Below, piece after piece: positions 20,401 through 49,398 of a DNA stretch of 64,000 nucleotides (the first letter of the stretch is position 1; every line of letters starts with the position of its first letter). The stretch is taken from assembly GCA_023213235.1 (NCBI GenBank), contig CP096137.1, positions 1,627,047 through 1,691,046 of the forward strand. The letters run 5' to 3'. Both the position numbers and the translations under genes were made by a program. The stretch is from Elusimicrobiota bacterium. Lineage in GTDB: Bacteria > Elusimicrobiota > Elusimicrobia > UBA1565 > UBA9628. The notes under the pieces were generated by a model. That model was not told the origin of the DNA. It made no database searches and worked only from the letters and a program-made list of their open reading frames with translations.

Positions 20401-20557
20401 CCTGCCTCCGTACCTGACGCTCGGCGCGCTGCGCTCGGCCCAGGGGCGCGCGGCGGACGCCGCCCGCCTTTACGACGCGGCGCTCGCGCGGCCCTCGGCC
20501 GCCCGCGAGCCGGCGCTCAAGGCCCTGCTCGAGGGCGCGCGCCGGGCCGCCCGCTAG
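17470..20557 (+). CDS. Polytopic membrane protein fused to a long C-terminal TPR domain (glycosyltransferase-like topology); two frameshifts
   Basis: GTG overlaps the upstream stop. The N-terminal ~450 aa are hydrophobic (ORFs 16237..18099 tail and 17667..18908). The C-terminal ~570 aa are TPR-like (ORF 18086..20557). Frame breaks occur near 18050 and 18840. Confidence 0.45.
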
Positions 20558-20563
20558 CGCGCC

Positions 20564-30699: not shown

Positions 30700-31835
30700 C
30701 GGGGGCTCCCGCCGCGGCGCGCGCCTGCTCCTCCGTGATCGCGCGCGGGTCGGACGACTCGACGGGGGAGGGAGGCCCATCGCCCGCGCCCACGGCAGAA
30801 GCTTCGCCCCGCCGTCCGGCCGCGCGGGGACCGCGTAGCCGGCGGCGCGCATCCACCCGGCGTTGAGGTGGGGATCGGAGCGGCGGCAGCCGCGCCCGGC
30901 CTTCAGCGCGGCCTCGCACAGCTCGCGTATGCGCTCCGCGGCGAGCGGCGACGCCGAGGCGGACTCGATCTCGGAGGTGTTCAGGTACAGGCAGGCGAAA
31001 TCCTTCCACGCGCCGAGAAGGTCCTTCTCCTCGAGCCGGAGCAGCGCGCGGTTGACGCGCGCCCACGGCTTGTTGCCGCTGATCGCGATGACGTCGGCCA
31101 GGTCCTTGAGCGCCCCGTCGCGGTCGCCGAGCAAGCGGCGCAGCTCTCCGCGCCAGACCAGGCCCTCGGGGTCGTGCGGGTCGATCTCGAGCAGGCGGTC
31201 GAGGTCGCGCTTGGACTCCTGGAGCCGGCCGAGGCGGCACAGCGCCCCGCCGCGCCAGCACAGCGCGTCGGGGTTGTCCATCGCGGCGGCCATGTCGAGG
31301 TCCTTGACCGCGGGCTCGTACTCGCCCCACCAGAGCTGCAGCGCGCCGCGCCAGGCGAGGAACGCCGACTTGCCGCTCTCGGGGACGGAGACCGCGCCGC
31401 GCACGGTCTTGAGCGGATCGGCGTGGCCGACGGCCATGAGGTTCTCGGCCCACAGGCAGCGGGCCTCCCACAGCCACGGGCATTTGGCGGCCACGGCCTG
31501 GATCTCGCGCGCGCGAGCTCGTAGAGGTCGAGGCGGCGCAGGAGAATCTCGGCGATGTAGTAGCGCATCCAGTAGAAACGCGGCGACGTCCGGCTTCCCT
31601 CGCCGAGCAGGCGCAGGGCCTCGAGGTCTCGGCCCGCGCCCCATTCGAGCGAGGCGAGGCAGAACTGGCGCCACGGGGCGGGAAGCGCCTCGGCCTCGCC
31701 GCGGCGGAAGTCGGACTTCAGGAACAGGTCGCGCAGCTTGCGGTAGGTCGCCGTCGGCTCGGAGTCGAACGACGCGTCCCAGCGCGCGAAGGCGTCCTTG
31801 TACGTCGACGACCCGAAGTGGTCCTGGACGGGCAT
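30696..31835 (-). CDS. TPR-repeat protein, paralog C (shorter; carries ...NKPWARVNRALLRLEEKDLLGAWKDFACLY... tail); frameshifted
   Basis: ATG at 31835 (MPVQDHFGSSTYKD) in ORF 30981..31907, then the frame of ORF 27478..31674. The terminal TGA overlaps DUF4932-D's GTG. Confidence 0.4.
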
Positions 31836-31839
31836 GGGC

Positions 31840-33580
31840 TCAGCGCTTCTCCGGGATGAAGAACGTCGACGCGGGATCCAAATCCTTCTCTTTGGACCGC
31901 AGGTCACCGACGGTCAGGCGCACGCGCGTCTCCTCGCGGTAGCCGTCGCCGCACTTGAGCGCGTGGACGGGATGCGCCGCTCCGTAGGTCTTCGCGAGCG
32001 CGTCGGCGAAGGCCGCGTAGCGGTTCTCCTCCATGACGCGGTTGACGCCGAGGACGATCGCGCCGCGGCGCGGGTCGAGCGCTCCGGCGTCCTCGACGAC
32101 GGAGCGCGCGTTCTGCACCGTGAAGCCGCGCTCGCACAGCTCGAGGTCGTCCTGCAGCATCGTCAGGATCCCGTCGATCGAGGAGGGGCGGTCACGACGC
32201 GGTACTCGTAGCCCGCTTCCTTGCAGCGCTTGGCCATCATGTTGCCTTCACCGAAGAGCATCGGGTGGCCGTAGGTGACGTAGGCGGTCTGAAGGCCCTT
32301 GTCGAGATCGGCGCGCACGGCCTTCCACGTCGCGCCCTGCGGATCGGCGCCGCGGCCGGAGGCGGTCGGGATCGTCTTGAGGCCCGGGTACACCGCCTCG
32401 AGGAGCTCTCGCACCTCGCGCGTGTCGTTCTGCGTGTACGCGGAGCCGCAGCGGCGCAGGGCCATGATCGTGTTCAGCGTGATCTCGTACGGGCGCTCGA
32501 TGCCGACGCCGAGAAGCCACAGGCGTCCGGCTCCGGCCTTGGGCGCGGCCGTCTTTTTCGTCTTGGGTTCCTTCATGATCTGGTCTCCGGCGGCGGCGGC
32601 CTCGAAGGCCTCGAACAGCTTGGCGCGCTCGGGTCGCCCCGCCGACTCCTTGCGCGCCGCGACGAAGCGCGCGAGCGCCTCCTTCGGGCGTCCCGCGGCG
32701 AGCTCGGCGCGGCCGAGCTGATACTCGAGCTCGGGGCCCTTGAAGCCGGCGGCCGCCGCGGCCTCGAGTTCGGCCCGAGCCTTCGCGGCCTCGCCGAGCG
32801 AGAGAAGGACGAGCGCGCGCTCGAAGCGCAGGGACGCGGCGCCGTTGGCCAGCGGCAGCGCGCGGTCGAGGTCGGCCAGCGCGCCCGCCCAGTCGCCGAG
32901 GCGCGTGCGCAGATAGGCTCGGTCGGTCAGCGGCTTCGGCGAGCGCGGCGCGAGCGCGGCCGCGCGCTCGAAGTCCTTTTCGGCGGCGGCGAAGTCGCTG
33001 CGGCCGGCCAGCACGACGCCGCGCAGGCAGAGCAGCTCCCAGTCGGAGGGGAGCACGGAGATCGCCTTGCCGAGAGCGGAGTCGATCTCGGCGTCGGGAC
33101 GGGAGGAGGGCCCGCCGCCGCCGTGCGAGACGCGGTCGACGGCCTCCTTGAGCCGCGGCAGCCAGGCCGCCGCGGTGGCCGCGTCCATCTCGCGCTCCAG
33201 CGCCCGGAGGCGCTCGGCCTCGGTCAACCGAGCCCCTTGAGGCGCTTCTCGACGGCGGCGCGCTGGTCCCACTCGGGCGGCGCCAGCTGCAGCGCGCGGG
33301 CGAGGTCCTCCTTGGCCTCCTTCGTCTTCTTGGCCTTCTCGTGCAGGCTCGCGCGCGAGGAGAGCGCGGCCGCCGCGGCCGCGCGCGTCTGCGGGGAGGG
33401 GATTTCGAGCGAACGCGCGATCGCCTTCTCGTAGGCGGCCAAGGCCTTGGCGTCCTTGCCCGTCGCCGACCACGCGGCCGCGGCGTTGATCAGGGACTCG
33501 ACGTCGTCCGGCGCTTCGGCGAGCGCGGCCTCGAACTTCTTGAGGGAGCCGGCCTTGTCGCCCTTGAGAAAGGCCTTCAT
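31840..33580 (-). CDS. TPR + TP_methylase-fold protein, paralog 5; about three frameshifts
   Basis: ORF 33224..33580 (MKAFLKGD..., TPR-like) joins ORF 32163..33725 (...GRLWLLGVGIERPYEITLNTIMALRRCGSAYTQN...YVTYGHPMLFGEG), which joins ORF 31840..32160 (the C-terminal subdomain). Confidence 0.5.
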
Positions 33581-33639
33581 GCCCTCCTCGTTGAGCTTCT
33601 TGAGGGAGGCCGGCCGCTCGTAGGCGTTCTCGCGCCCGG

Positions 33640-35005
33640 GCGGCGCCTTTCGACGGGCCCGGAGGGCCCGGGCGACGGCGAGGACGCGGCCGGCGCGGCG
33701 AGCACCTTCCGGGCGCCCTCGTCATTCGGGCGCAGCGCGAGCACGGCCTTGGCGTCGGCGACGGCCTCGTCGCGGCGGCCGAGGAGGTGGCGCAGGCACG
33801 CGCGCTTGAGTAGGAGGCCCGGGTTCTTCGAGCGCTCGAGCATCAGGTCGAGGTACCACAGCGCGCGCTTGCGCTGGGCGTCGGTGTAGAAAGGCATCGC
33901 GTTCTCGACGATCCAGTCCCGGTACGGGTCGCCCTCGCGGTCGAGCGGCCGGGACGGGCCCTTCGGCGCGGGCAGCACGTCGAGCAGGCGCGGGTAGAAG
34001 TCGGCGAAGGTCGGGTACTTTTTGCGGTCCTTCTCGTACTCGGCGACGCGTTCCTTGAACGCGGCCAGGTGCGGAAGCCCGCACTCCGTCTCGTGGCGCA
34101 GCTCCTCGTCGGAGTAGGCCTGGCTGACCTCGTGCCAGACCATGCGCAGCATCGCGGTGCGCACCATGTGCTCGCGCACGTGGTGCATCCAGTTCTGGTA
34201 CTCGCGCGAGGGCTCGCGCGCCGCGGGCTGCTTGCGCGCGATGTCCTCGCCATAGAGCTCGGTCACGTTGTCGAGCACGCCGTGCGCGGCCTCGTGCCAG
34301 ATGCGCGGGTGCAGGCGCTTGTAGGTGCACTTGATCGGCCCGCCCGGCGGGGAGCTCGATGGGCCCGAGCACCGAGATGATGTCGGCCAGGCCGTCCTCG
34401 CCGCGCTGAACGATGTTGGCGCCCGTGTCGGACTGGACGAACGGGGTGAGCACGAACGCGTAGCGGCCCTCGAACGGCAGGCCGCAGTACTTCTCGATCT
34501 TGCCGATGTGGTCGTTTTCCTCGAGCTCCTCGCGCAGGGCGGCGAGGTCGGCGTCGAGCAGCTTGACGTTCTTGTCGAAGAACTCCTGGAACCGCGCGTC
34601 GCGCGCGAAGTCGCGCATGTCCTGGAGGAAGGCCGCGAGGTGCTCCTCGCCGCCGACGTAGTGCGCGAGGAAGGAGATCGAGATCTGCGTGGAGGGGGCG
34701 AGTTCCGGCAGCGGCGAGAGGCGCATGAGCCCCTGGCCGCGCTGGCCGAGGTCGAAGGCGCGGAAGCGGGCCTCGGCGCGGCGCTTGATCGCCGGGTGCT
34801 TGGCGTGCGGCGCGAAGTACTTCCGCGCCTCGCGCACGTAGGGGATGTCCGGGCACATGAAGTCGGTCGCGTGCGCCTTTCCCTCGGACCCCTTCGTCAG
34901 GTCGTAGGCGAGGAGCTCCATGACGCCGTCGAGCTCGAGCCGGGGGTCGACGAAGAACTCGAGCTTGCTCGCGGCTTTGGGTTTGGGCTTGGTCGCGGGC
35001 GCCAC
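33640..35005 (-). CDS. DUF4932-like protein with intact HExxH (IWHEAAHGV), copy 2; frameshifted near 34330; possibly fused to paralog 5
   Basis: ORF 33722..35005 (FFVDPRLELDGVMELLAYDL...) continues in ORF 33577..34278 (PIKCTYKRLHPRIWHEAAHGVLDNV...). No stop separates it from the MKAFLKGD start at 33580. Confidence 0.45.
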
Positions 35006-35628: not shown

Positions 35629-38600
35629 CTAGGCCCCGCGGTTTTCGAACAAAGCGGGGGCCAGTTCGCGCGCCCGGGCCAGGGCGGCCGCGGCCTCTCG
35701 CGCGCGCCCGGCCTTCTCGAGGCACACGCCGCGCCCGATCAGAGCCCAGACCTCGTTGGGCTCGACGGCCAGCGCGGCGTCGTAGGCCGCGAGCGCCCCG
35801 GCCTCGTCGCCGCTCTCGGCGCGGGCGCGACCGGTCCATGTCCAGGCCTGCGCCCAGCGCGGATGGCCGGCGAGCGCGCGCTCGAGATCGGCCAGGCCGC
35901 CTTTCGCGTCGCCGCGCGCGGCCTTCAATTCGCCGCGCCACCCCAGGATCCAGAAGCAGGACGGCGACAGCGACGCCGCGCGCTCGAGGTCGGCCGCCGC
36001 GGCGTCGAGCTCGCCGCGGCCGCGACGCACGCCCCGCGCAGACCCCAGACCCAGTCGAGCGCCGCGTCCGCCCGGATCGCGGGCCCTTCGGCGCCGAGGA
36101 AGTCGTAGTCGCAGGACAGCCGCGGGTCGAGGCGCAGCGAGCGCTGCAGTTCGGCCAGACCCTGCTCGCGCCGGCCGAGGTCGCAGAGGATCTGCCCGCG
36201 CAACGCGATGAACCAGGCGTTTTGCGGCTGCAGGGCGCTCGCGCGCTCGACGTCGGCGAGCGACTCCTCGAGCCGCCCGGCCTTGCGCAGGAACTCGGCG
36301 CGCCAGCCGCGCGCGTAGGCGTCGACGCCGCCGCGCTCGGCTTCGAGCGTGTCGGCGATCGCGCCCTCGACGTCGCCGCCCTGCCGCCGCGCCTTCGCGC
36401 GAACCACGAGAGCCCACGTCCAGGCGCGGTCGCGCTCGACGGCGTTCGTCGCGGCGGCGACGGCCTCGTCGTAGCGGCCGAGGCTGCGCAGACACTCGGA
36501 GCGCTGGACCCACGCCGAGGCCGAGGCCGGCGCGAGCGCGATCGCCGCGTCGGCGTCGGCCAGGCCGCCCGCGAAGTCCCCGAGATGGCGCTTGATCTCG
36601 ACGCGCCGCGCGATCGCGGCGGCGTCGCCGGGCTTGAGCGCCGCGGCCGCGTCGAGGTCGGCGAGGGAGAGGTCGTAGCGGGCCAGGCAGCGCCAGGCTT
36701 CCGCGCGGGCCTCGAGGAGGTCCGGATCGCGGCGGCGGCGCGCGAGCAGCCGGCCGAGCAGCTCCGCGGCCTCCTCGTGGCGGCCCTCCTTCTGCAGGGC
36801 GCGCGCGGCCGCGATCCCTTCGGTCGCCGGATCGCGGGAGTCCTTGCGGCGAAGCAGGGCGCGCAGGGCGCGCCGCTCCGCGGGCGACAGGAGCCCGGGA
36901 TCGGCGAGGGCTCGCTCCGCGTCGGCGCGCGCTTCGCCGGGGCGGCCCTGCGCCGCGAGCAGCGAGGCGCGGTGGAAGGACGCCAGGCCGTCGCCGGGCT
37001 TGAGCTCGAGGGCCCGCGCGAGGTCGGCGTGCGCGCCCTCGCGGTCGCCCCGGCGCGCGCGCGCGACGCCGCGCCACAGGTGGGCGTCGGCGAACTTGAC
37101 GTGGACCTCGATGGCCCGGGTCAGCGAGGCCTCGGCGGCGGCCCAGCGCTTGAGCCGGATCTCGGCCTCGCCCTTCCAGCACAGCAGCCAGGCGGAGTTC
37201 TTCGCGCGCTCGAGCGCGGCGTCGAAGTCGGCGAGGGCCCCCGCGGCGGAGCCGGCGAGGAGCTTCACGCGCCCGCGCCAGGCCCAGCCGTCGGGGGAGC
37301 CGGGCGCCTTCTTGATCGCGGCGCTCAGGTCGGCGAGGGCGGACTTGCCGCGCCCGAGCTCGGAGCGCGCGCGCCCGCGCAGCACGAGCGCCTCGTGGGG
37401 GCAGTCCGGGAGCGCGAGCGCGCGCGTGAGCTCCTTCTCCGCCGCCTTGAAGTCGCGCAGGCGCATGAGCACGTCGCCGCGCCACAGCCGCGCCAACGCG
37501 GAGCGCGGGTCGCGCTTGAGCTCCGCGTCGAGCTCGGCCAAGCCCGCGCCGAAGCGCGCGGGTTCGGCCTCCCAGACGTACTTCGCGTTCAGGCGCGAGG
37601 CGGCCTGGATGTCGGCGAGCGCCGCGGCGGTCTCGCCCATCGCGCGGTGGGTCTGCATGCGCTCGAAGAGGCACAGGTCGAGCGTGTGGGGCTTGAGCGC
37701 GATCGCGACGTCGAGATCGGCGAGCGCGGCCTTCGACTTGCCTTGGAGGCGCCGCGCGCTGCCGCGCCAGGCGTAGGCGAGCTCGTAGTCGGGGAACAGC
37801 GCGATCGCGCGGTCGAGCGTCTTCTCCGCGGTCTTGGCGTCGCCGCCGCGGCGCTGGAACTCGCCCTGCCAGGCGCGGATCCAGCCCGTCTCCGGCTCGA
37901 GCTCGACGGCTTTCTGAAGGGATCTGCCGGCCTCTTTAAAGTCGCCGCTCGTGACCTGGCACCGCGACAGGTACGCCCAGACGAAGCCGCGGTCCGGGGC
38001 GAGCTCCGCGGCGCGGCGCAGGTCCTGGACGGCGCCGAGGTTCTCGCCGATCTGCGGCGTGCGCCGGTTGTCGGCGCGGAACACGTACGCCCACCAGTCT
38101 TCGGGATTGCTCTCGATGCGGCGGGTCGCCGCGTCGACGCTGCGCCGCGGGTCGGTCTTGAGCTCGTGGATGCCGAGCATCACGAACAGAAGACCGGAGT
38201 TCTCGTCGAGCCTCATCGCGCGTTCGCAGTCCGCGAGGCAGCCGGCGGCGTCGCCCGCGTCATGCTTGGCGATGCCGCGCAGGCGCCAGCCCCACTCGAG
38301 CGAGGGGTCGAGCGCCAGCGCGGCGTCGAGCGCGGCGACGGCCTCCTCGTGGCGCTTGAGCAGGCTCAGGAAGATCCCGCGCGCCGCGTGAGGCAGGGCG
38401 TCCGCGGGCATCAGCCCGGCGGCGGCGGAGGCCTCCTCGAGCGCGGCCTCGCGGCTTCCGGCGCCGGCGCGCGCGAGCGCCCGCCAGAGCCTCCACCAGC
38501 CGTTCTTCGGCTCGAGGGCGATCGCCCGGTCGAGGTCGGCGGCGTCCGCGCGCCCGGCGGCGTCGTCGGCCTCCCAGCGCCAGGCGAACGCGGCGGCCGA

Positions 38601-38828
38601 GCCTTCCTTGCGCGCGGCCGCGTCGAGCTCCGCCCGGGCCGACGGATCGCCGAGCAGTCGCAGAAGCCGCCCGCGTTCCGCGCGGACTTTCGTCTTCGCG
38701 AGCGCCGCGCGCAGCGCGGCGGCGTGGAGCACGGCGTGGCGGCCCGGAACGTAAGAGGAAGAGCGGCCCAGGAAGAAGTGCCGCCCGAGGGCCTCGACCA
38801 GCGCGTTGCTCCGCGGATTCAGGCTCAT
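35629..38828 (-). CDS. Giant TPR-repeat protein (about 1066 aa), cytoplasmic; frameshifted near 36030
   Basis: ORF 35925..38828 (967 aa, about 25 TPR-like units with recurring W-x-W-R-G/WAY motifs) plus its C-terminal continuation in ORF 35629..37674. Confidence 0.6.
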
Positions 38829-38844
38829 CCCCGAAATCGAACCA

Positions 38845-38894
38845 TTTTTAGCGAGGCTTGACGCTCTCCGCGTTTTGACTTATCCTTTCGGGAC
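38845..38894 (+). promoter_or_regulatory. Putative promoter TTGACG-N17-TATCCT for the 38895 gene
   Basis: Reads cTTGACGctctccgcgttttgactTATCCTttcgggacATG. The -10 match is weak and the call is low confidence. Confidence 0.2.
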
Positions 38895-40986
38895 ATGAGC
38901 AATTCCGCCGCCGCCCGCGTCCTGCTCGCGGCGACGCTGGCCCTTTTCGCGACGTCCGCGCGGGCCGATTCCAGGGCTCAGAAATACTACTACGAGGACA
39001 TCGCGTCGCCGTTCTTCGCGCCCGATCCCGCCCGTCCCGGCTGGATGAAGGCCCAGCGGCCGGGGTCGAAGGACGGCTCCTTCCGCAAGGAGAAGCCCCC
39101 GGGCGTCTTCCGCGTGTTCGTGCTCGGCGGCTCGATCGCCGGCCTGCTGCAGTACGAGGGGGCCCCGGCGACCTCGGGCCGGTCCTGCGCAAGGCGCTGC
39201 CGGGGCGCCAGGTCGAGGTGCTCAACTGCGGCATGGCCGGCTACGAGAGCTACCGGGAGGCGCTCGTCGAGCAGGAGGTCCTCGAGTACGAGCCGGACCT
39301 GCTGGTCTTCCTGACCGGCCACAACGAGGGCATCGCCTCCGCGCCGATTCCGCTGTGGGTGATGCGCGCGCAGGAGCGCCTGAGCCGGTTCGAGGCGTAC
39401 CGCGCCTGGGTCCGGAAGGTGCGGCCGTCGGGCGACGGCGTCTCCGGCGGAGGCGCGAAGGCCGACGCGCGCGACGCCGCGTTCCGGCGGAACCTCGCGG
39501 AGAACCTCCGGCACGCGCGCGCGCGCGGCGTGCCCGCGGCGGTCGTGATCCCGCCGCGCAACTACCGGGCGCCCGCGGAGGCGGCCCGGACGCCGTACGA
39601 CGCCGGGCTCGTCGCGGGCTGGATCCGCTATCTGCGCGGCGATTGGAAGGGAGCGCGCGATGCCTGGGCGGCGGCCCTGGACTCGCCGGCCGCGGCCCTG
39701 CCCGAGAACGCGGACCTCCACGCCTTCGCGTGGGTCTTCATCGGAAGGGCGGAAGAGAGGCTCGGCCGCTGGTCGCGGGCGCTCGAGGCCTACGACCGGA
39801 GCTCCGAGCACGATCGCTCCTCGATCTGCGCCTCGGCCTGCCAGAAGATCCTGCGCGAGACCTCCGCCGCCGAGGGCGCCTTCCTCGTCGAGGCCGACGC
39901 GCTCTTCCGCGGGCTGACCGCGCCGCGGGCGCCCGGCCTCGAGACCTTCAACGACCGCATGCATTGGAAGCCGCGATTCAACTGCCTGGTCTCCTCCGAG
40001 ATCGCGGCGGCGGCCGCCGTGAGCCTGCCGGCGCTGCCGTGGGACGCCGCGGCGCTGCGGGGCGTGCGCGCCTCCTGCGAACTCCCCAAGGAGGGCGCCG
40101 CGGGCGACGAGGCCGACGACAGGCGCGTCCTCGGCTACGTGCGCATGGGGCTGTCGTGGCCGGATTTCGAGTACCTGTCCATGGTGTCGGTGTTCTACCT
40201 CGCGTTCGCGCGGCACGCGCGACCGTCGTGGTTCGCGGACCTCGACGAGCTGGCCGCGCGCACGGCGAATCCCCAGACCCAGGTCTACGGCATCGAGATG
40301 GCCGACGCCGCCGTCTTCGGGCCCCGGCTGCGCTGGCACGTCGGCGAGTCGCGCCTGCTCGACGGGGACTGGAAGCGCGCGCGCGCCGACATCGCGCGGG
40401 CCGTCGCCGCCGATCCCGCGCTCGCGTGGGCGCGCGTGAGCCTGGGCGTGGCCGCGGCGCTCGCGGGAGACCGCAAGGCCGGGGCTCGACTTCTCTCCGA
40501 GGCCGTCGAGCGCGCCTCCGGGCACCCGCACCGCCGCCGGATCGCCGCTTCCGCGGCGGCCGCGGCCGTCGAGCTCGGCCTCGACGCCTCCGCCGCGGCG
40601 GACGCCGATCCCGAGCGCTGGGTCGCGGCCGCCGAGGCCGCCGTCGACGCGGGGCGTCCCGCGCAGGCGCGCGACGCGCTCAAGCGGGCCGCCGCGGCCA
40701 AGCCCGAGGATCAGCATCTGCGCCGCATGGGCCAGTGCTGGACGCGCCTGCGCGACGACGAAGGCTTTCTGTCGGTCTCCGGCGCGCTCGTCGCCAGCTA
40801 TCCGAAGGACGCGGACGTGCGCATCTCCTTGGCGTCGAGCCTGCTGGTTCTCGGACGCCGGGCGGAGGGGAGGCCGCTCTCGCCGAGGCGGAGACGCTCT
40901 CCCCGTCGCAGTCGCAGCGCCTTCAAATCGCGAACTGGCGGCGCTGGCTGGCCGACGGCGCTCCGCCGGCGAGGATACCGCGATGA
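38895..40986 (+). CDS. Secreted SGNH/GDSL-like hydrolase fused to a TPR-like C-terminal region; two frameshifts
   Basis: Signal peptide MSNSAAARVLLAATLALFATSARA. Shows FRVFVLGGSIAG (block I Ser), NCGMAGYES and LVFLTGHNEG. Frame breaks occur near 39200 and 40860. Confidence 0.45.
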
Positions 40987-42560
40987 ACGCGGCCGCGCCC
41001 CTGCCGATCGCCGCCGTCCAGCTCTACGCCTGCGGCCTGTTCCTCGCCGCCTGGGCGCAGATGGGCTGGGTCGACTGGAAGGAGCAGAAGATCCGCAACC
41101 AGTACCTCTGGTTCTGGGCCAAGCTCGCGCTCGCCGGCTGGCTGGCTCTGGCCCTCCACTCGGCGGCCGGAGAGCTCGGCTGGACCCGCGTCTACATCGT
41201 GCCCTCCTACTACCCGGCGCTCCTCGGCCACGCGGCGTTCTCGGCGGCGGCGGCCTACGCGCTGTGGTGGCTGCGCATCTGGCCCGCCGGCGACGTCAAG
41301 CTCTTCGCGCTCCTCGCGCTCGTCCTGCCGTTGACGCGCGTGCCCGCCCAGTTCCGCTCGGGGACGATGTTTCTCGAGGTGCTGATCAACGTCTTCGTGC
41401 CCGCGGCGGCCTTCCTGTTCCTGACGGCCGGCGCCTACCTGTGGCGCACGCGCTTCTCCGGCTGGTCGGACCGCGCGGCGGCCTGGGCGCGGGCGCGGAC
41501 GGCGGGGCTGTCCCTGCCGAAGGCCAAGGCGCCCTCGCTTCCCTCGGTCCCGGCGGAATGGCTGCGCGCCCCCGACGCGGCCCGCCTGCGCGCCGCCGTC
41601 GAGCCGGTGCGAGAGGTGCTGCTCGGCTGGTACGACCAGTACCGCGCCGAGCCGTTCATGCTCGTCAAGGACATCCTCTCGTGGCTGGCGATGATGGCGA
41701 CGATGTCGCTGATCTCCTACTACCTCAACGACGTGATCTCCTCCAACGTGCTCAAGACCCTGTTCTGCTTCGCCCTCATGTTCGGGTGGAGCCGCGTCTG
41801 CCAGTTGATCGGCACGGTGCAGGCGATGGGCCTGCTGATCGCCGCCCTGGCCTTCATGCTCCACCGCCACCCGAACGTTGATGTCCCGGCGCTGGCCGTG
41901 ATCTTCGGCCACATCACGGTCTTCTCGCTCTGCATCTTCCTCGGCATCCAGATCGCCTTCCGCATCCTCGCCGGCAAAACGGGCTGGGCGTTCCTGCCCG
42001 TGCTCATGATGTTCGTCGGCCTGATCCCGTGGAGCATGATGATCGGCTGGGTCTGGAGCGTCTTCGTGGAGGGCCTGCGCTCCGCGGCGCGGCTGCTCGG
42101 AACGGTCGAGGCCCCGGCGGTCTCCATCCCGCGCCTGCCGCCCGTCCCCGCGCTCGAGGCGCCCGGCGTTCCGGCTTGGCTGACCGCCCTCGAGGGCTCC
42201 GGTCTCGGCACGTGGGCCGCGATGGGCCTCTTCTTCGGCCTCGCGCTGGTTTTTGTTAAGATTTGGGACGCTGAGTCCTACAACTCCGTGCCCGTCGACC
42301 ACATCGAACCCTTCATGAACCTCGGGCCCTCCCTCGTCGAGCGCATCGAGGCCGACGAGGACTTCCGCGACGAGCACTTCCCGACCTTCTACGCCGACGG
42401 CCTGACGCGCGACCAGGTCGAGGCCCTCAAGGTCTGGTGCCGCGACGAGGGCATCGAGACCGTGCCGCTCGCGCCGACGATCTCCTTCGCGAACTGGATC
42501 TTTCTCGGCTACTTCCTGACCCGCGTCCTCGACGGCCACGTGCTGAGGTCCCTCTACTGA
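40983..42560 (+). CDS. Polytopic membrane protein with A24 prepilin-peptidase-like motif (IWPAGDVKLFALLALVLP) and large extra domains
   Basis: Track ORF of 525 aa with about 10 TM helices. It has a GDVKL aspartyl-peptidase-like motif and a soluble C-terminal roughly 100 aa. ATGA overlap with the upstream gene. Confidence 0.45.
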   Translation: MNAAAPLPIAAVQLYACGLFLAAWAQMGWVDWKEQKIRNQYLWFWAKLALAGWLALALHSAAGELGWTRVYIVPSYYPALLGHAAFSAAAAYALWWLRIWPAGDVKLFALLALVLPLTRVPAQFRSGTMFLEVLINVFVPAAAFLFLTAGAYLWRTRFSGWSDRAAAWARARTAGLSLPKAKAPSLPSVPAEWLRAPDAARLRAAVEPVREVLLGWYDQYRAEPFMLVKDILSWLAMMATMSLISYYLNDVISSNVLKTLFCFALMFGWSRVCQLIGTVQAMGLLIAALAFMLHRHPNVDVPALAVIFGHITVFSLCIFLGIQIAFRILAGKTGWAFLPVLMMFVGLIPWSMMIGWVWSVFVEGLRSAARLLGTVEAPAVSIPRLPPVPALEAPGVPAWLTALEGSGLGTWAAMGLFFGLALVFVKIWDAESYNSVPVDHIEPFMNLGPSLVERIEADEDFRDEHFPTFYADGLTRDQVEALKVWCRDEGIETVPLAPTISFANWIFLGYFLTRVLDGHVLRSLY

Positions 42561-43906
42561 TGAAGACCCTCGACGAGTTCCGCTGGATCTACGGCGGCGG
42601 CCTGAGCCCCGAGTGGGAGTGGGTCGTCCGCCGCCGCAGGGAGATCGCGCTGGCCGACCTCGCGCGCGTCGAGAAGGAGTACCTCGCGTCCGCGCCGCCC
42701 GGCGTGCGCAAGCGCCGCTACGCCGCGGGCCTGCGCTACTTCCTGCGCACCAAGGGGCCGGAGCGCGACCGCCTCGCCGTGCACCCGTGCTTCGACTACT
42801 GGCTCGACCTGCACGCCAAGCACTTCAAGAACCCGGCGGCGGACAGCGACTGGCACCTGCAGTTCGGCCTGTTCCAGGGCTTCGCGGCCTCGCTGGCTCT
42901 CGCGCGCGGCGACCGCCTCGAGCTCGACGCGACGGCCGACCCCGACGGGCGCTTCTTCCTGTACGGCTCGCCCAAGTTCGTCGCCTCGAAGCCGACCGCG
43001 GAGCTCACGATGAAGGCCGAAGGCGGACGCCTCGTCGCCTGCGGCAAGCCCGTGAAGCTCGAGCCGCTCGTCGAGGCCGTGCCCGGCATCACCGCCGACG
43101 ACCGCGGCTGGCTGCTCGTCCACGGCGTCACGATGCACGGGCTCGTCTCCCTCGAGGCGGCGGAGCGCGAGCGCTTCGCCGCGGTGCTCAAGCAGGCCTT
43201 CTCCGACCTCGCCGAGCGCGACCCCGGCCTGCACGCCGAGATGACCGACATGGTCTTCGCTCTCGTCCCGCTCAAGAACCCCGTCGAGCACGGCAGCGTC
43301 AGCTCCTCGTACGTGAACCTGCGCGGCGCGATCGCGCTCTCCCACGCCGAGGACCCGATCCTCCAGGCTGAGACCCTGATCCACGAGTTCTGCCACCAGA
43401 AGATGAACCAGCTGCTCGTCGTCGACCCGGTGCTGCTCCCCGGGCAAAGCGGCCAGGTGTTCTACTCGCCGTGGCGCGCCGACGCGCGCCGCCTGCGCGG
43501 CCTGCTGCTCGGCGCGCACGCGTTCCTCAACGTCGCGCGCTACCTCGCCACCTCGCTCGAGCGCGAGTCCCTGCCCGACCTCCAGAAGATCGAGCTGATG
43601 GTCAACGTCTCCCTGCGCCTCAACCAGGTCGAGGCGGCGATGAAGGCCCTGACCGGCTACGGCTCCTTCACCGAATTCGGCCGCCGCTTCGTGATGGGCA
43701 TGTGGCGCGAGGTCGAGCTCCTGCGCCACGCGACCTTGTGGTACCCGCCGGCCCTGCGCGCCGAGCAGGCCAAGGTCTCCGCCGCTCATCGCAAGAAGTA
43801 CGCGCTCGGCGAAACCGGCTTCCACAAGAGCGCGGCCCACGTCGACAAGATCCGCCGCACGCCGTTCCTCGGTCCGCAGGACGAGGAGCCCAAGGAGGCC
43901 GCGTGA
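42560..43906 (+). CDS. HEXXH-motif domain protein (LIHEFCHQKMNQLL ... YSPWRAD), putative peptide/protein-modifying metallo-enzyme
   Basis: ATG overlaps the upstream stop (TGATG). A single HExxH motif is followed by SPWR and LLGAHAF blocks, features recalled from TIGR04267-type proteins. There is no signal peptide. Confidence 0.5.
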   Translation: MKTLDEFRWIYGGGLSPEWEWVVRRRREIALADLARVEKEYLASAPPGVRKRRYAAGLRYFLRTKGPERDRLAVHPCFDYWLDLHAKHFKNPAADSDWHLQFGLFQGFAASLALARGDRLELDATADPDGRFFLYGSPKFVASKPTAELTMKAEGGRLVACGKPVKLEPLVEAVPGITADDRGWLLVHGVTMHGLVSLEAAERERFAAVLKQAFSDLAERDPGLHAEMTDMVFALVPLKNPVEHGSVSSSYVNLRGAIALSHAEDPILQAETLIHEFCHQKMNQLLVVDPVLLPGQSGQVFYSPWRADARRLRGLLLGAHAFLNVARYLATSLERESLPDLQKIELMVNVSLRLNQVEAAMKALTGYGSFTEFGRRFVMGMWREVELLRHATLWYPPALRAEQAKVSAAHRKKYALGETGFHKSAAHVDKIRRTPFLGPQDEEPKEAA

Positions 43907-44502
43907 ACGCCAAGGAGCGGGGAGAATTCCTGAAAGCCGTGCGCTCCTGCTTCCCGGAGCTCGACACGAAGCCGCTCGCCGCGGCCGCCGAGGCCTGCGA
44001 GGCGCCGGGACGCTGGGAGGTCTCCGTGCGCGGCGGCGGCCTGGAGAGGATCGGCCTGCGCTTTTTCGGCGAGGGGGACTACGGCGCCTGGTCGAAGAAG
44101 GCCGCCGAGGCCTTCGCCGCGAAGGCCGGCGCCGCGCCGCGGCCGGGCTCTCCGTGGCTCGTCGTCGACTGGGACCTCAAGGCGGGCAAGGCCGCCGCGG
44201 TCAAGATCGGCGGGGCCTCGCCCAAGCCGGGCCGCTTCAAGCCCGGTTTCTTCGGCGAGCCCGCGCTCGACTCGGCTTTGGCCGACTTCGCCGCGCTGTG
44301 CCCGGTGTCCGGCTTCGCGCACGACGGCGCCTCGTGGTCCCTGACTCTCGAGAAGCCGCCGCGCTGGCCGCTGTTCGCGCGCACCGACGTCTCGGCGGCC
44401 TTCACGCCGCTCTCGTCGCAGCTGGCGCTTCTGCTCATCGACCGCAAGGTGACCGAGCTCTCGTTCGACGGGGAGGCGCTGTGGGCGCATTGCGCGGGAT
44501 GA
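43903..44502 (+). CDS. Hypothetical protein (about 200 aa)
   Basis: GTG overlaps the upstream stop. It is in the frame of ORF 43471..44502 and has no recognisable motifs. Confidence 0.35.
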   Translation: MNAKERGEFLKAVRSCFPELDTKPLAAAAEACEAPGRWEVSVRGGGLERIGLRFFGEGDYGAWSKKAAEAFAAKAGAAPRPGSPWLVVDWDLKAGKAAAVKIGGASPKPGRFKPGFFGEPALDSALADFAALCPVSGFAHDGASWSLTLEKPPRWPLFARTDVSAAFTPLSSQLALLLIDRKVTELSFDGEALWAHCAG

Positions 44503-45121
44503 AGAAGGTCTGCGTGCTCGCCAGCGGCGGCTTCGACAGCTCCGCGCTGATCGCCGACTACCTCGACCGCGGCTGGGAGGTGCACCCGTTCTACGCGCGC
44601 TCCGGCTTCTACTGGGAGAAGGCCGAGCTGTTCTGGCTGCGCAAGTTCCTGCTTCGCCTCAAGTCGAAGAAGCTCAAGCCTCTGACGGTCGCCGACGTGC
44701 CGATGAAGTGGATCATGAAGGACCACTGGAGCATGAACGGCAAGGGCTCGCCGTCCTCGCGCGCGGCCTGGGACTCGGTGTACCTGCCCGGGCGCAACTT
44801 GATCCTGCTCAGCCAGGCCGGCGTCTACGCGGCCACGCACGGCGTGCCCGTCGTGGCCCTCGGCGTCCTCAAGGGAAACCCGTTCGCCGACTCGCGCCCG
44901 AAGTTCCTCGCCGACATGCAGTCGGCGATCAACGACGCCCTGCGCGCGCGCCTGAAGGTCGTCGCTCCCTACACGAAGCGGAGCAAGCACCAGGTGGGCG
45001 CGATCGTCGCGAAGCTCGCCAAGCGCTTTCCGCTCGAGCTGACCTTCTCCTGCCTGCACCCGCGCGGCGTGAAGCCCTGCGGCAAGTGCAGCAAGTGCGG
45101 GAGACCCGCACCAAGCTCTAG
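44499..45121 (+). CDS. queC: QueC-like PP-loop ATPase (7-cyano-7-deazaguanine synthase family); frameshifted near 45100
   Basis: Reads MKKVCVLASGGFDSSALIADYL (SGGxDS PP-loop), then LPGRNLILLSQAGVYA, then TFSCLHPRGVKPCGKCSKC. One extra G redirects the frame to ...CAETRTKL*, a QueC-like Zn-Cys4 C-terminus ending at 45121. Confidence 0.55.
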
Positions 45122-45596
45122 CGTCCTGTCTTCTTCCACATCCGCGGATCGAAGAGATATGGAATGGGGTCGGAAATGATCAGTTTTGAAAAATCGGCGT
45201 GCGCGGGATTGATCAGGATGTTGGTTTCCACCGGCGTTATGGCCGAGGGGAGGACGAGGATCGCGGATTCGCCCGATGAGATCCACTCGTCCCCTCGAGC
45301 TTGAGTCGCCTCGGGAGTCGGATTATCCTTCCAGCCCGGGGGAGATCTATTTCCGTCCATTCCCGGATCGCGATCCCGTCCGGGATGTCGATCGAATAGC
45401 TGGCATGACGGATGAGCATTCCGTCCTCCCCCAGATGCACGAATTTCTCGAGGGCGGCGAGGGAGAGGCTCGACGCCGCGTAGACCACCCGCCGGGAGGG
45501 AGTGTTCCAGCGTCCGGCATAGATGCGGGAGCCTTCTCCGGAGAACGCGTCCGCTTTCGCGCGGCTGGCTTTGTCGATGCGCCAGGCGCGGATCAA
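45118..45596 (-). CDS. RES-domain toxin (type II TA); frameshifted near 45300
   Basis: ORF 45237..45596 shows RIYAGRWNTPSRRVVYAASSLSLAALE (the R..E..S signature). The C-terminus lies in ORF 45118..45360. The locus has locally lower GC. Confidence 0.6.
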
Positions 45597-46027
45597 GGCA
45601 GGACGCCGTATTCGAGCTGGCCGAGCAAGGTCTCGACGGCCCGGGAACCCGGGTCGGTGTCGAGCATGTCCATCGGGACCTTCCCTCCGAGCCCGGGCTG
45701 AGGGCGCTGCAGCCAGCGCACGGCCGGAGGCACGTCCTCGAAGAGATCGACGGCCATCTTCAGGACCCGAAGGGCGCGATAGAGCCGGTCGCTGGCGACG
45801 GGATCAAGGCTTGCCTTGTCGCGCTTGGTGCGCGTCAGAGTGCGGTCGCTCACTCCGATGATGCGGGCGAAAGCCTTGTCCTTTATCTGGAAGGCCTCCT
45901 GGGCTCGGCGGACGTTGGCCCATTTGAAGCCGTCGTGGATGGTCTGGGACGCGGCGGCCCCCGCTTGCGGCCGGTCGGCCAGCAGGGAGAACAGGAGGCT
46001 CAGCGACGGAGCGAGAGTTGTAGCCAT
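45593..46027 (-). CDS. Xre-type antitoxin partner of the RES toxin (MbcA/ParS-like)
   Basis: Track ORF of 144 aa. A C-terminal toxin-binding region (GKVPMDMLDTDPGSRAVETLLGQLEYGV) is preceded by an HTH-like region. Its stop overlaps the RES start. Confidence 0.55.
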   Translation of the reverse strand: MATTLAPSLSLLFSLLADRPQAGAAASQTIHDGFKWANVRRAQEAFQIKDKAFARIIGVSDRTLTRTKRDKASLDPVASDRLYRALRVLKMAVDLFEDVPPAVRWLQRPQPGLGGKVPMDMLDTDPGSRAVETLLGQLEYGVLP

Positions 46028-46068: not shown

Positions 46069-46989
46069 TCAGGCCAGTTCGGCGGTGGGAACGGCGATGC
46101 CCGCGTACGAGCCGGCCTCGAGCTGATCTCCGAGCCAGGTCACCGGCTGAGGCTTGAACGACGCCTCGACGAAGGTCCGGCAGCCGGCGGCGTGCGCGGC
46201 GCGGACCGCCTCGAGGTGCTTCTCGCAGGCGACGGTCTGCTCCGCCAGGAGTTCCTTGATGCGCGCGGGGTCGGTCTCGGCCTTGCCGGACGTGCCCATG
46301 AATACGGGCACCTTGGGCGCCTTGAGGTCGAGCGACTTAACGACCTCTTGGAGGGCGAGCTTCGCGGGCGCGAACGCGGCGGTGTGGTACGGGCCCTCCA
46401 CCTTGAGGACCTTCACCTTCACGGGCCAGTCCTCGGCGACGGCCTTCGCGGCGTAGGCCTCAAGCGCGGCGGCGGTTCCGCCGAGCGTGCCCTTCGTGAT
46501 CGTGTTCCACAGCGCGACGGAGACGCCGGGGACCTCGGAGGCGGAATCGGCGACGTCCTGGAAATCGTCGGACGCCGCGGCCGCGAGTCCCATCGGCTCG
46601 GAGAAGCCTTTGCAGCAGTCGGAGAACGCCTTGGCGCGCGCGGCGATGAAGCGGCCGCTGTCCTCGACGGTGAGCGCCTCGGCCGCGACGAGCGCGGCGA
46701 CGACGCCCATCGAGTGGCCGACGGCGCCGTTGAGTTCCGTGCCGGGATTCTTGGCGAGATAGGCGAACCAGTGGCCGAGATGCGAGGCGTGGATCGCGCG
46801 CTGCGCGTTGAAGGTGAGCGCGAGCTCCGGATCGGGCATCGTCGTCAGCAAGGTCTCGAGGTCGGCGCCGAGGGAGGGCTTGAGCCGGTCGATCACGGCC
46901 TTGGCGGCGGGGATCTTCAGCAGTTCCTTGCCCATGCCGGCTTCCTGAACCGACTGCCCGGCGAACAGCGCGCAGACTTTCTCGCTCAT
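46069..46989 (-). CDS. fabD: Malonyl-CoA:ACP transacylase (acyltransferase domain)
   Basis: FAGQSVQEAGMG N-terminus, GHSMGVVAALVAAEAL (GHSxG active-site Ser) and a conserved His region near the C-terminus. Confidence 0.65.
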   Translation of the reverse strand: MSEKVCALFAGQSVQEAGMGKELLKIPAAKAVIDRLKPSLGADLETLLTTMPDPELALTFNAQRAIHASHLGHWFAYLAKNPGTELNGAVGHSMGVVAALVAAEALTVEDSGRFIAARAKAFSDCCKGFSEPMGLAAAASDDFQDVADSASEVPGVSVALWNTITKGTLGGTAAALEAYAAKAVAEDWPVKVKVLKVEGPYHTAAFAPAKLALQEVVKSLDLKAPKVPVFMGTSGKAETDPARIKELLAEQTVACEKHLEAVRAAHAAGCRTFVEASFKPQPVTWLGDQLEAGSYAGIAVPTAELA

Positions 46990-47018: not shown

Positions 47019-49398
47019 TCAGACCACGGTGCGCGGCATCGAGGCGTCCCAGCAGCCCTCGAGCGCCTTGCGGAAGGCGAGCGCGTCCGCCGGGCGGCGG
47101 GACGGGTCGGGGGACAGCGCCATGGAGAAGAAGGCGTCGAGCTGGGCGGGCAGGGCCGGGCGCTGGCGCGTGATCGGCACGAACTCCCCGCGCATCTTGG
47201 GGCCGAGGTAGTCCGGGCCGATGAACGGGCGCTTGCCGCACAGCAGCTCGTAGGTCATCACCGCGAGCGCGTACAGGTCGGAGGCCGGGAGCACGGAGCC
47301 CATCGCCTGCTCGGGCGCCATGTAGGGGGCGTGCCGCTCGCGGAGGTCTGCGTCGCGGCCGCGCCGCTGCGGGACTGGTGCGCGATGCCGAAATCCATGA
47401 TCTTCGCCGCGCCGTCGGCGGCGAGCATGACGTTCGAGGGCTTGAGGTCGCGGTGGATGATGCGGCGCGAATGCGCGGCCGCGAGCGCCGAGCACAACTC
47501 GGAGACGATGCGGCGCGCGGCGTCGGGGTCCAGCGGGCCGTCGTCGAGCGCCTTGTCGAGCGGCTTGCCTTCGATCAGCTCGAAGACGAGGAACAGCCCG
47601 CCGTCGTCGACCGCGGCGTAGATCTCGGCGACGTTCGGGTGCTTGAGCTGGGCGACGAGGCGCGCCTCCTGCAGGAAGCGCGCGGCGTCCTCCGGCGAGG
47701 CGCGGAAGTCCGACTGCATCTGCTTGAGCGCGACGGGACGCTTGAGGCGCTCGTCGAGCGCCTCGAAGACGACGCCCATGCCGCCGCGGCCGAGCTCGCG
47801 CGTGATCGTGTACTGCCCGGCGACGGTGTCGCCGCGGCCGACGGTGCGGTCCGGGCCGTCGCTCGCGGCGGAGGCCGTCGCCGCTCGCGCGCGGCGGGTG
47901 GCGACGCGCGCGCCGCCGACGAGCCCCGCGAGCACGAGCAGCAGCGACAGCGCGATCGCGCCGCCGCGCACGAGCCTGCGGCGGACGGCCTCGCTGGGGC
48001 CGGACGGCGCGGGGCCGCGGCCGAGGCGGCGCAGGGCCTCGTCGGCGACGGGAGTCAGAGCGGGGTCCAGGCGCGCGGCCTCACGGTACTCGGCGACCGC
48101 GTCGTCCACGCGGGCCAGCTTTTCCAGGATTTGGGCGCGCAGCAGATGTCCGGCCGCGCTGCCGGCGTCGAGAGCCAGCGCGCGGTCGGCGGCGGAAAGC
48201 GCCTCCTCGAGGCGGCCGAGCTGCATCAGCGCGTCGGCCTTCGCCCGCCACCCGCGCGCGTCGTTGGGATTGCGGGCGAGCACGCGCTCGGCGTCGGCGA
48301 GGCCGGCCGCCGGATTTTTCATCGCGTTCGAGATCTCGGCGCGCAGAGTGCGGGCCGCGTCGTCGTCGGGGTTCTGATCGAGAGCCAGGGTCAGGTCCGC
48401 GAGCGCGCCCGCGTAGTCGCCGAGGACCGCCTTGCGGTGGGCGAGCTTGAGGTGCGGCGGCCCGGCGAGCGGCTCCGGAGCGGGTCCGCCGGAGCCCGAC
48501 GGCGCGGCGCCGAGCGGGGGACGGAACCCGCGGGAACGCGCGCCACGCCTCCGGCCGCGCCGGTATCGGGGGCTTCTTTTTCCTCGAAGCCGGGCCTGGC
48601 GCCGGGCCCTTTGAGCCTGGATTTCGCGAGCACCGCCTCGGCGAAGGCGAGCGCGTCCTTGGCCCGCTTGTTGGTCGGGTCCAGCGCCAGCGCGCGCTTC
48701 GCCCAGCGCGCGGCTTCCGACGGGTCGTCGCGCGTCAGCGCGGTCTCGGCGAGGACCGCCGGGCCCCGGGCGTCGTCGGGCTTGCGCTCGACGGCGAGCT
48801 TGGCGACGCGTTCGGCGTCGGCCGGGCTGCCGGCGGCCAGGTGCTGCTCGGCCACCTTGCCGGCCTTGGCGAAGTCGGGCTTGGGCCCGCCGAGGGCGGT
48901 CTTCTCGACGAGGTCGACCGCCTTCTGCGGCGGCGTCACCGCCCCCGGCGTGCCGGCGGGAGACGGCGGGTTGAATTCGAGCTCGTTGAGCGGCTTGATC
49001 TTCTGGAGAGCGACGAAGCCCGGAGCGGTTTCATTGTACTCGCGGTAGGCGTCGTACTCGGGGCCCGTCGCTGATTGGCCCCGCATCTGGGCGTCCATGA
49101 AGACGCTCCAGGAGATGTCGTACCTCGTGGACGCCTCTTGATAGGTTTTCTCTTCGTCGGGAGATCGCTTCTTGCCGACCAATGGCTTCATCACGGCCGA
49201 GGCCTCGTCGGCCAGCGCGCGGCAGGCGGAGATGACGGCGTCCTGATAGGCCCCGCAGCGGGCGACGCCGTCGGAGGACGCCGTTGCGCATTCCGCTTTG
49301 ACGCCCGCGGGCGAGAACGCGTTCAGCGAGCATTCCGCCGCGGCGGCCGGCGAGGTCAAGGTGAGCGCGGCCAACAGCGCCGCGAGGGGTCGGCTCAT
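47019..49398 (-). CDS. Receptor-type Ser/Thr protein kinase: signal peptide, periplasmic TPR-rich domain, TM helix, Hanks kinase; two frameshifts
   Basis: ORF 48391..49398 (signal peptide MSRPLAALLAALTLTSPAAAA, TPR-like) joins ORF 47258..48322 (TPR, TM helix AIALSLLLVLAGLVGG, GRGGMGVV...HRDLKPSNV...DFG), which joins ORF 47019..47495 (APE...). Confidence 0.6.

Follow-up and report, generated by a model that had tools for sequence, protein, structure and literature searches.

Oxygenases of the aKG-HExxH type have been recognised only recently, and to our knowledge every characterised one acts on the precursor of a ribosomally made, post-translationally modified peptide (RiPP) that is encoded beside it. 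They are Fe/alpha-ketoglutarate (aKG) oxygenases of zincin-like fold that beta-hydroxylate residues of RiPP precursors (Asp, His, Phe, Gln or Pro) and are also able to cut the backbone (PMC12636437, PMC13060819), the iron being bound by the HExxH motif (PMC13060819). We describe here a gene of this family in a different setting. It lies in a 64-kb stretch of Elusimicrobiota contig CP096137.1 (positions 1,627,047 to 1,691,046) from a metagenome-assembled genome, called the window throughout, within a run of four + strand genes to which an earlier note on this DNA had drawn attention: G1 (40983-42560), coding for a polytopic membrane protein of 525 residues that we take as a divergent A24-type peptidase homologue; G2 (42560-43906), the aKG-HExxH-type protein, 448 residues; G3 (43903-44502), an orphan protein of 199 residues with a GTG start; and G4 (44499-45121), a member of a non-canonical QueC subfamily. 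Our preferred reading, to which we give a probability of roughly 0.5, is that G1-G2-G3 is a conserved cassette, seen only in Elusimicrobiota, which modifies and processes a peptide or protein encoded elsewhere, and that G4 is a neighbour only.

The described members of the family (TIGR04267 / IPR026337; ChlBH/ChlH, BpmH, PflC/PosC, PesO) share with G2 the HExxH and SPWR blocks. Unlike them, G2 has none of the classical RiPP genes near it, be it for a precursor peptide, an MNIO or a transporter; it is partnered instead by an orphan protein of 200-230 residues and by an A24-like membrane protein, and its clade is confined to Elusimicrobiota in the data examined. A second system that invites comparison is the pes (nitrilobacillin) RiPP cluster, where the aKG-HExxH enzyme PesO is joined with PesC, an ATP-dependent C-terminal nitrile synthetase that converts a carboxylate to an amide and then to a nitrile (PMC13060819), the sort of chemistry envisaged in the earlier note. 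However, PesC is asparagine-synthetase-like and not QueC-like, and the precursor peptides, MNIO, M16 peptidases and transporter of the pes cluster are all absent from the G1-G4 locus. No description of the combination of the G1, G2 and G3 families was found in the literature searched.

A conserved three-gene cassette

In the raw sequence five co-directional genes of the + strand, namely G1 to G4 and a tetratricopeptide repeat (TPR) gene ahead of them (38895-40986), have overlapping stops and starts and leave no intergenic room. The stop of the TPR gene (40986) overlaps the ATG start of G1 (40983) in an ATGA, the TGA of G1 (42558-42560) shares a TGATG with the ATG start of G2 (42560), the stop of G2 (43906) and the GTG start of G3 (43903) share a GTGA, and the stop of G3 (44502) and the ATG start of G4 (44499) another ATGA, so that the co-directional arrangement and the ATGA, TGATG and GTGA overlaps given in the earlier note are all there. 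A sigma-70-like promoter match (TTGACG-17-TATCCT, 38858-38886, + strand), agreeing at 9/12 positions and a consensus match only, adjoins the first gene of the run on its upstream side, and from 38895 to 45121 the + strand showed no further promoter-like site. The match may be the promoter of an operon and is weakly consistent with a single operon.

We compared 38 distinct G2 loci, with G2 identities of 44-80%, assembled from 27 G2-seeded genome loci, several contig look-ups and G4-seeded metagenome loci (loci carry our own L numbers in what follows). G3 comes directly after G2 in 32/34 informative loci and G1 directly before G2 in 27/32, while G4 is found within 3.2 kb downstream of G2 in 22/30, a figure inflated by the G4-seeded loci. 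Among the G2-seeded loci G4 is present in 16/24, and in 4/10 of those where G2 is <60% identical; it is absent from L002, L024, L025 and L029 and from all stand-alone G2-G3 pairs. Such pairs sit at second sites, as in L001, which lies ca. 15 kb from a G1 copy (L118) on the same contig, and in the metagenome-assembled genome to which both L022 and L023 belong; L026 and L027 are further stand-alone examples. L016 and L118 have G1, G4 and fabD in this order and G2-G3 at another place, and G4 keeps its position beside fabD, the fabD-like gene that also follows downstream in the window. The four-gene arrangement recurs in dozens of related contigs and is therefore not due to chance. G2-G3 is the tightest unit, G1 is a frequent third member, and G4 goes with fabD and the local gene order more than with the cassette.

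All G2/cassette loci are from Elusimicrobiota, and it could be argued that the gene order was merely inherited, in an operon shared between the TPR gene and fabD, and that the functions of G1-G4 are unrelated. The similar conservation of the flanking TPR gene and fabD fits this explanation, as does the fact that no shared substrate was found. However, G2-G3 pairs occur at independent sites with different neighbours (L001/L017, L022, L026, L027), the G1-G2 adjacency is maintained down to 44% G2 identity in loci with differing flanks (L002, L025, L029, L117), and G1-type proteins are found also with radical SAM peptide-modifying enzymes. We consider inheritance of gene order by itself quite unlikely.

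TPR genes overlap the starts of G1-type genes in three lineages (the window, L118 and L120), and TPR proteins recur around G1, G2 and G3 loci, together with TP_methylase-family and DUF4932 proteins. The association suggests that the TPR proteins may recruit the substrate, or may be the substrate themselves. Some loci differ from the common layout. In the Elusimicrobiota clade of L003 (10001-10678), L023 (5787-6443) and L019 (9440-10084) a DUF4932-like gene for 388 residues stands between G3 and G4, and G3 is truncated to ca. 150 residues or absent. On the short contig L053 (3-1258) a G2-like HExxH gene (40% identity) divergently adjoins a G4-like gene (52% identity).

The HExxH protein

G2 scores 109.8 bits against NCBIfam TIGR04267 (aKG-HExxH-type peptide beta-hydroxylase; cut-off 40) over residues 211-381. 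It contains a single HExxH, the metal-binding motif HEFCH (His275-Glu276-x-x-His279, 43382-43396, + strand), and the SPWR and LLGAHAF blocks. H275, E276, H279, the SPWR block (S303-R306) and H320 are invariant in 18 G2 homologues with 48-80% identity. The profile of these 18 homologues finds 22nu_A in the PDB with an E value of 3.5e-18 over positions 21-400, that is, near full length, and the ChlH structure 8s5f with an E value of 0.0048. On its sequence, G2 clearly belongs with the aKG-HExxH peptide beta-hydroxylases, and it would be expected to act as a hydroxylase on a peptide. The suggestion in the earlier note that a protein with one HExxH and these two blocks belongs to a kind associated with maturation is upheld, as the family is one of RiPP maturation (PMC12636437).

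The orphan partner

G3 has no match in Pfam, NCBIfam, PADLOC or among PDB sequences, the last searched with a profile, and its family of 77 members has no sequence relative outside. The conserved blocks are an N-terminal MNxKERxEW and a C-terminal FDGEALWA. The AlphaFold2 (AF2) model (pLDDT 89) consists of repeated alpha-beta-beta (helix-hairpin) units, and in a Foldseek search the six best matches, with marginal scores, were all ABBA aromatic prenyltransferases, including FamD1, CloQ, PatF and DMATS1. The predicted series of alpha-beta-beta units is what G3 would have in common with the ABBA (PT-barrel) prenyltransferases (CloQ, FamD1, PatF, DMATS). It differs from them in its length (180-230 residues vs ca. 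300), in the lack of any sequence similarity and in having dispensable segments. The G3 of the window is without an in-frame stretch of ca. 28 residues found in most homologues (ca. 227 residues), probably a beta-hairpin, and three other homologues of 176-179 residues are without a different segment. The model of the window protein has four beta-hairpins, as against the ten-stranded barrel of five alpha-alpha-beta-beta units in the ABBA enzymes; the longer homologues may have a fifth hairpin, to judge only from their ca. 28 extra residues.

The close association of G3 with G2 also allows a different role, that of a folded precursor which G2 hydroxylates, comparable to the nitrile-hydratase-like leaders of PflA and PosA. 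G3 almost always adjoins G2, with no other candidate substrate nearby, its MNxKERxEW N-terminus and FDGEALWA block are strongly conserved, and large folded leaders are possible for HExxH substrates (PMC12636437). Yet the predicted fold is a single compact one (pLDDT 87-96) that takes in the C-terminal strands and leaves no disordered tail resembling a core peptide, the last 4-5 residues vary between clades, and, as we read the sequence, there is no hydrophobic segment on which an A24-type peptidase could act. We regard it as highly improbable that G3 would be the substrate, and we retain it as a putative partner protein of the cassette.

The membrane protein

The membrane protein had been likened in the earlier note to a prepilin peptidase with a GDVKL motif and large extensions, and this description proves apt: WPAGDVKL is present, and the protein appears to be a divergent A24 homologue with additional membrane segments. 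The putative first catalytic aspartate is Asp31 (codon 41073-41075, + strand), in the motif VDWxEQKIRN, which resembles the D-x5-IPN of A24 peptidases. The putative second is Asp104 (codon 41292-41294, + strand), in WPAGDVKL, a motif of the GxGD type. In the AF2 model (pLDDT 79) Asp31 is at the end of helix 1 and Asp104 at the start of helix 4, after which comes a poorly conserved block of helices. In all, some 250 residues are taken up by extra membrane helices, and a small soluble alpha/beta domain precedes the last helix.

The close G1 family comprises 77 proteins, all annotated as 'hypothetical', and 3/24 close homologues match PF01478 (best E value 5.5e-4). An exhaustive search with the G1 profile recovered 748 cluster representatives, and many of the distant relatives are proteins of 380-430 residues that match G1 at both ends. 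Peptidase_A24 (PF01478) is matched at E<=0.01 by 49 of 96 distant relatives (best 2.4e-8), and no other family recurs; one, P0368, exceeds the gathering cut-off of 26.5 bits with 28.1 bits, and a few match archaeal A24 C-terminal domains as well. Across these 96 relatives, only 18-33% identical, D31, W100, D104, K106 and F502 are invariant. Three of these residues (W100, D104, K106) make up the WPAGDxKL block, in which P101 is conserved and not listed as invariant, and F502 sits in the family block PLAPTxSFA. A profile search of PDB sequences with G1 gave no match. We conclude, by transitive homology together with motifs and without a direct match, that G1 is a divergent A24-type homologue, and it probably keeps catalysis.

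Compared with peptidase family A24 (the type IV prepilin peptidases PilD/GspO/TadV and archaeal FlaK), G1 has the two invariant aspartates, the second in GD(V/A)KL, and near its C-terminus a helix with P-x-x-x-S-F-A that is similar to the FGP helix of A24. However, an insertion of some six further helices makes it about twice as large, and it lacks the methyltransferase domain. Genes for pilins, secretins or ATPases are absent from its surroundings, as are class III signal peptides; G1-type genes are coupled instead to TPR, HExxH or radical SAM genes. One distant relative, P0340 (430 residues), is found in L033 (1-8911) among six radical SAM genes, and L033 looks like another peptide-modification cluster that uses this membrane protein family. 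The same locus holds a TP_methylase and two paralogous proteins of 292 and 299 residues with no assigned function; these two were considered as G3 homologues and rejected, as hhalign found no relation.

The QueC-like gene

The Pfam QueC model covers the whole of G4 with 80.5 bits, in agreement with the homology proposed before. It remains below the cut-offs of the QueC equivalogs, with 69.9 vs 150.3 bits for TIGR00364 and 37 vs 378 for NF008317. With QueC (TIGR00364) it shares a similar length, the PP-loop SGGxDS (SGGFDS in G4), the (V/L)PGRN motif (LPGRN), the Cys4 zinc site SC-x8-C-x2-C-x2-C, and an aromatic residue and an Asp at the YPDC position; moreover, in many loci members of its subfamily share an operon with queD. 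The difference lies on the substrate side, where YxQxHxxE becomes YxRxGxxWE. In G4 the places of Y35, Q37 and H39 of E. coli QueC are taken by S, F and E, that of YPDC by FADS (with loss of C134) and that of Y189 by L, and there is an extra HWSxTGxGVP insertion. Y35 and Y189 are essential in E. coli QueC and belong to an experimentally defined signature (PMC13329287). The same replacements are found throughout the G4 subfamily, of which 219 relatives were recovered from metagenomes with the motifs WDSVYLPGRN and GNPFxD. In the scheme of Libby et al. 2026 canonical QueC reportedly corresponds to cluster 1 of PF06508.

Gene context, taken from 80 fetched metagenomic loci, goes along with a neighbour-joining ordering of the subfamily into three groups. 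The first is from Elusimicrobiota, with fabD and G1-G3. In the second, ca. 30 of the 80 loci, the gene comes directly after queD, whose product has 60-66% identity to that of E. coli; the queD stop and the start of the QueC-like gene overlap in L104 (6985-8024) and L077 (7-1181). The third is found in housekeeping contexts, e.g., with gyrB, phoU and panE. We treat all three as one subfamily because all score 57-97 bits against TIGR00364, the queD-linked members 63-70. In L016, where the order is G1-G4-fabD-G2-G3, a queF-II gene (preQ1 synthase; 12007-12483, 153 bits vs a cut-off of 87) follows G3 directly, in convergent orientation. Because the subfamily follows queD in ca. 30 loci, and is absent from several G1-G2-G3 loci, G4 is probably an enzyme of the 7-deazaguanine pathway; put more broadly, it would serve deazapurine or pterin metabolism as a QueC-type enzyme of non-canonical kind. 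That it takes part in the work of the cassette is less likely.

The earlier note had reasoned that this QueC homologue may not be a queuosine enzyme and may act as an ATP-dependent tailoring step. This does not agree with the queD-linked loci, with the queF-II gene beside the cassette in a related Elusimicrobia locus, or with the absence of G4 from 8/24 G2-seeded loci. In the trio of leader peptidase, modifier and ATP-dependent tailoring enzyme that it proposed, the first two parts are supported and the third is not. No queuosine genes were found near G4: tblastn with E. coli QueD and QueF gave no match in the 64 kb of the window, and with E. coli QueE none in the window or any locus, although this last probe is too divergent and thus insensitive. 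The window does not present the situation that the note had held to speak against its proposal, namely queD, queE or queF immediately downstream together with an HExxH protein of an unrelated peptidase family.

Two kinds of protein deazaguanylation ligase from the QueC family, Cap9 and QatC, of type IV CBASS (the cyclic-oligonucleotide-based antiphage signalling system) and QatABCD, respectively, resemble G4 in their PF06508 fold and compact size. They differ in that no CD-NTase, Cap10 or QatA/B/D genes are present at the G4 locus, and in that the Cap9 motifs Y/FxQ(x)5E and H(x)4YxDC are not kept in G4 (PMC13329287). The QatC model NF041925 gives at most 29 bits with G4 relatives, where the cut-off is 280. 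With the single G4 sequence as query Cap9 ranks first in the PDB, and a special kinship between the two was considered and rejected, as the subfamily profile places Cap9 and QueC equal (ca. E 3e-17). A role in defence was rejected as well: PADLOC returned only a generic QueC match for G4 and nothing for G1-G3.

The subfamily shows further variation. In the L003/L019/L023 clade the PP-loop SGGxDS of G4 is shortened to SGADS or SGGDS, which could mean loss of ATP binding. As a whole it is widespread, and its queD-linked QueC-like genes (L073-L114) are common in soil metagenomes. The subfamily may be either an unrecognised isofunctional type of QueC or the maker of a different deazapurine or pterin derivative, and in both cases it affects the calling of queuosine pathways in many uncultured phyla.

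One pathway or a cassette with a neighbour

There is an alternative in which all four genes belong to one maturation pathway. G1 would remove a leader, G2 would hydroxylate, and G4 would spend ATP on turning a carboxylate of the peptide into an amide, a nitrile or a conjugate or, in a variant, on acylating the N-terminus that G1 has exposed, in the way that Cap9 and QatC act on protein N-termini. The stop of G3 and the start of G4 overlap here and in most close relatives, G4 is no more than 3.2 kb from G2 in the 22/30 informative loci given above, and it directly follows G1 in L016 and L118. G4 is without the canonical QueC motifs YxQxHxxE and YPDC, protein modification is known for enzymes of the QueC family (PMC13329287), and Cap9 is its top single-sequence match in the PDB. 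An aKG-HExxH enzyme and an ATP-dependent nitrile synthetase do occur together in one RiPP cluster (PMC13060819). On the other hand, the subfamily, whose members share these motifs and score equally low, stands in an operon with queD in ca. 30 loci and in housekeeping contexts elsewhere, its profile is equally close to Cap9 and QueC, G4 is absent from L002, L024, L025, L029 and the stand-alone G2-G3 pairs, and its PP-loop is shortened in the L003, L019, L023 clade. There is also no precursor peptide, and fabD is conserved beside G4 in most loci, so that synteny alone can explain the adjacency. We find a four-gene pathway unlikely.

A more elaborate form of this idea would be a novel sort of membrane-anchored maturation machine with TPR neighbours, in which G1, as an A24-type peptidase, takes the leader off a peptide or protein that has been hydroxylated and the QueC-like G4 then uses ATP to modify the exposed terminus. 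If this were true, the step carried out by G4 would be amide or nitrile formation, or conjugation of a nucleobase as in Cap9/QatC, and chemistry of the 7-deazaguanine type would be tied to peptide maturation outside phage defence. We consider such a machine very unlikely.

We therefore return to the G1-G2-G3 cassette with G4 as its neighbour. In this scheme G2 would be a cytoplasmic Fe(II)/alpha-ketoglutarate HExxH oxygenase that hydroxylates side-chain beta-carbons of the substrate, and G3 its partner, either non-catalytic or presenting the substrate, with a barrel fold like that of prenyltransferases. G1 would be an A24-type intramembrane aspartyl endopeptidase that cuts the substrate at the membrane by means of Asp31 and Asp104, its extra helices possibly serving for hand-over or export. 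The upstream TPR protein, often translationally coupled to G1, may recruit the substrate. G4, presumably co-transcribed and most likely outside the chemistry of the cassette, would probably act on a 7-deazaguanine or pterin-derived carboxylate, and its place between the cassette and fabD would be a matter of conserved synteny.

Several observations weigh against this proposal. No conserved small open reading frame (ORF) was found: the clusters formed by 270 small ORFs from G1/G2/G3 loci are antisense shadows of unrelated genes. A search of all six frames of the window and L001-L034 for a prepilin-like N-terminus ([KR]G[FMLIVY][TS]L..E) gave one match, which we read as spurious. G1 itself has no match in Pfam or NCBIfam, with nothing for Pfam Peptidase_A24 at E<=1; hhalign of its family with E. 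coli GspO aligned the C-terminal helix only and without significance (E 0.15), and Foldseek found nothing in the PDB for its structure model. The Foldseek scores of G3 are marginal (E 0.011, TM ca. 0.35), and its family tolerates the loss of whole segments. The co-occurrence counts are inflated by inherited synteny, because the loci are all from one phylum. As for G4, residues essential in E. coli QueC are missing, and in view of the overlap of its start with the G3 stop in most close relatives, and of the G1-G4 adjacency that persists in L016 and L118, it may have a functional tie to the cassette. No precursor peptide gene was found in or next to the cluster, so that a RiPP cluster as such is a possibility only.

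That a conserved HExxH clade has no local precursor, and in its stead an orphan protein as fixed partner and an A24-like membrane protein, suggests another logic of substrate choice, which could mean a protein substrate or a distantly encoded peptide. A24-type aspartyl peptidases may also act outside pilus and flagellum biogenesis, and the superfamily of G1, otherwise unannotated, is with its 748 cluster representatives a sizeable one.

Flanking genes and sequence quality

Beyond G4 the fabD-like acyltransferase gene (46069-46989, - strand; Pfam Acyl_transf_1) is convergent with it. fabD is 67-87% identical in relatives and adjoins G4 in most loci that extend far enough, and it is a conserved synteny anchor beside G4 in Elusimicrobiota loci. 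In the window a RES toxin / Xre-MbcA-ParS antitoxin pair (45118-46027, - strand; Pfam RES and Xre_MbcA_ParS_C) is inserted between the two. It does not belong to the cassette, whose 3' end it delimits in this genome. The RES match is split over two frames (45237-45596 and 45118-45360), Xre_MbcA_ParS_C covers 45593-46027, the RES stop overlaps the corrected stop of G4, and the pair has a strong promoter-like site of its own (46064-46036, 11/12 positions). L006 and its closest relatives have fabD directly after G4, with no room for such a pair; relatives beyond the L006 group have larger G4-fabD gaps.

The TPR gene upstream of G1 has no Pfam match other than TPR. Its product begins with a signal-like segment and contains what we read as SGNH-hydrolase-like blocks (GGS...GHNE). 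The gene is broken into three reading frames (ORFs 38895-39314, 39218 onwards and one ending at 40986), whereas in the relative L010 both tblastn segments share one reading frame, as a coordinate check indicated. G4 carries a 1-nucleotide frameshift in a run of G at ca. 45100-45103, which puts its last seven codons out of frame. As written the ORF reaches 45179, and the GenBank entry is this uncorrected form (UPT75784.1, 226 residues, named 7-cyano-7-deazaguanine synthase); relatives, including a homologue at least 90% identical, terminate in ...CSKCGETRTKL at 207 residues, and the end at 45121 given previously is the right one only after the correction, which likewise yields 207 residues. At least five frameshifts relative to homologues fall within ca. 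10 kb: two in the TPR gene and one each in the tail of G4, the RES toxin and a Ser/Thr kinase gene (47019-48322) that is out of frame. The reading frames of G1, G2 and G3 are intact, and their products show 100% identity to GenBank proteins of a 3.8-Mb contig. Because the shift in the G4 tail, the one site inspected, is in a homopolymer run, and the assembly is a single 3.8-Mb contig, this suggests uncorrected long-read indel errors rather than pseudogenes or biology.

On the other side, divergent from the operon, is a gene for an all-TPR protein of 967 residues (35925-38828, - strand; Pfam TPR families), which has 44-63% identity over ca. 930 residues in at least 11 related loci. Next comes an island of ca. 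25 kb (11012-35005) with putative modifying enzymes that are fused to TPRs or adjacent to them. It includes TPR+TP_methylase proteins (11012-12553 and 32163-33725), TP_methylases (12624-14384 and 14392-15042), a PhyH-type dioxygenase (25195-25962) and DUF4932, both at 33722-35005 and inside a TPR protein of 1398 residues (27478-31674). Families of this island recur beside G1, G2 or G3 in L001, L002, L022, L024, L029, L033 and L117. The GC content of the window is ca. 72%, and the stretch 18001-24000 stands out with values of 0.79-0.81 vs ca. 0.72 elsewhere and with very long overlapping ORFs on both strands.

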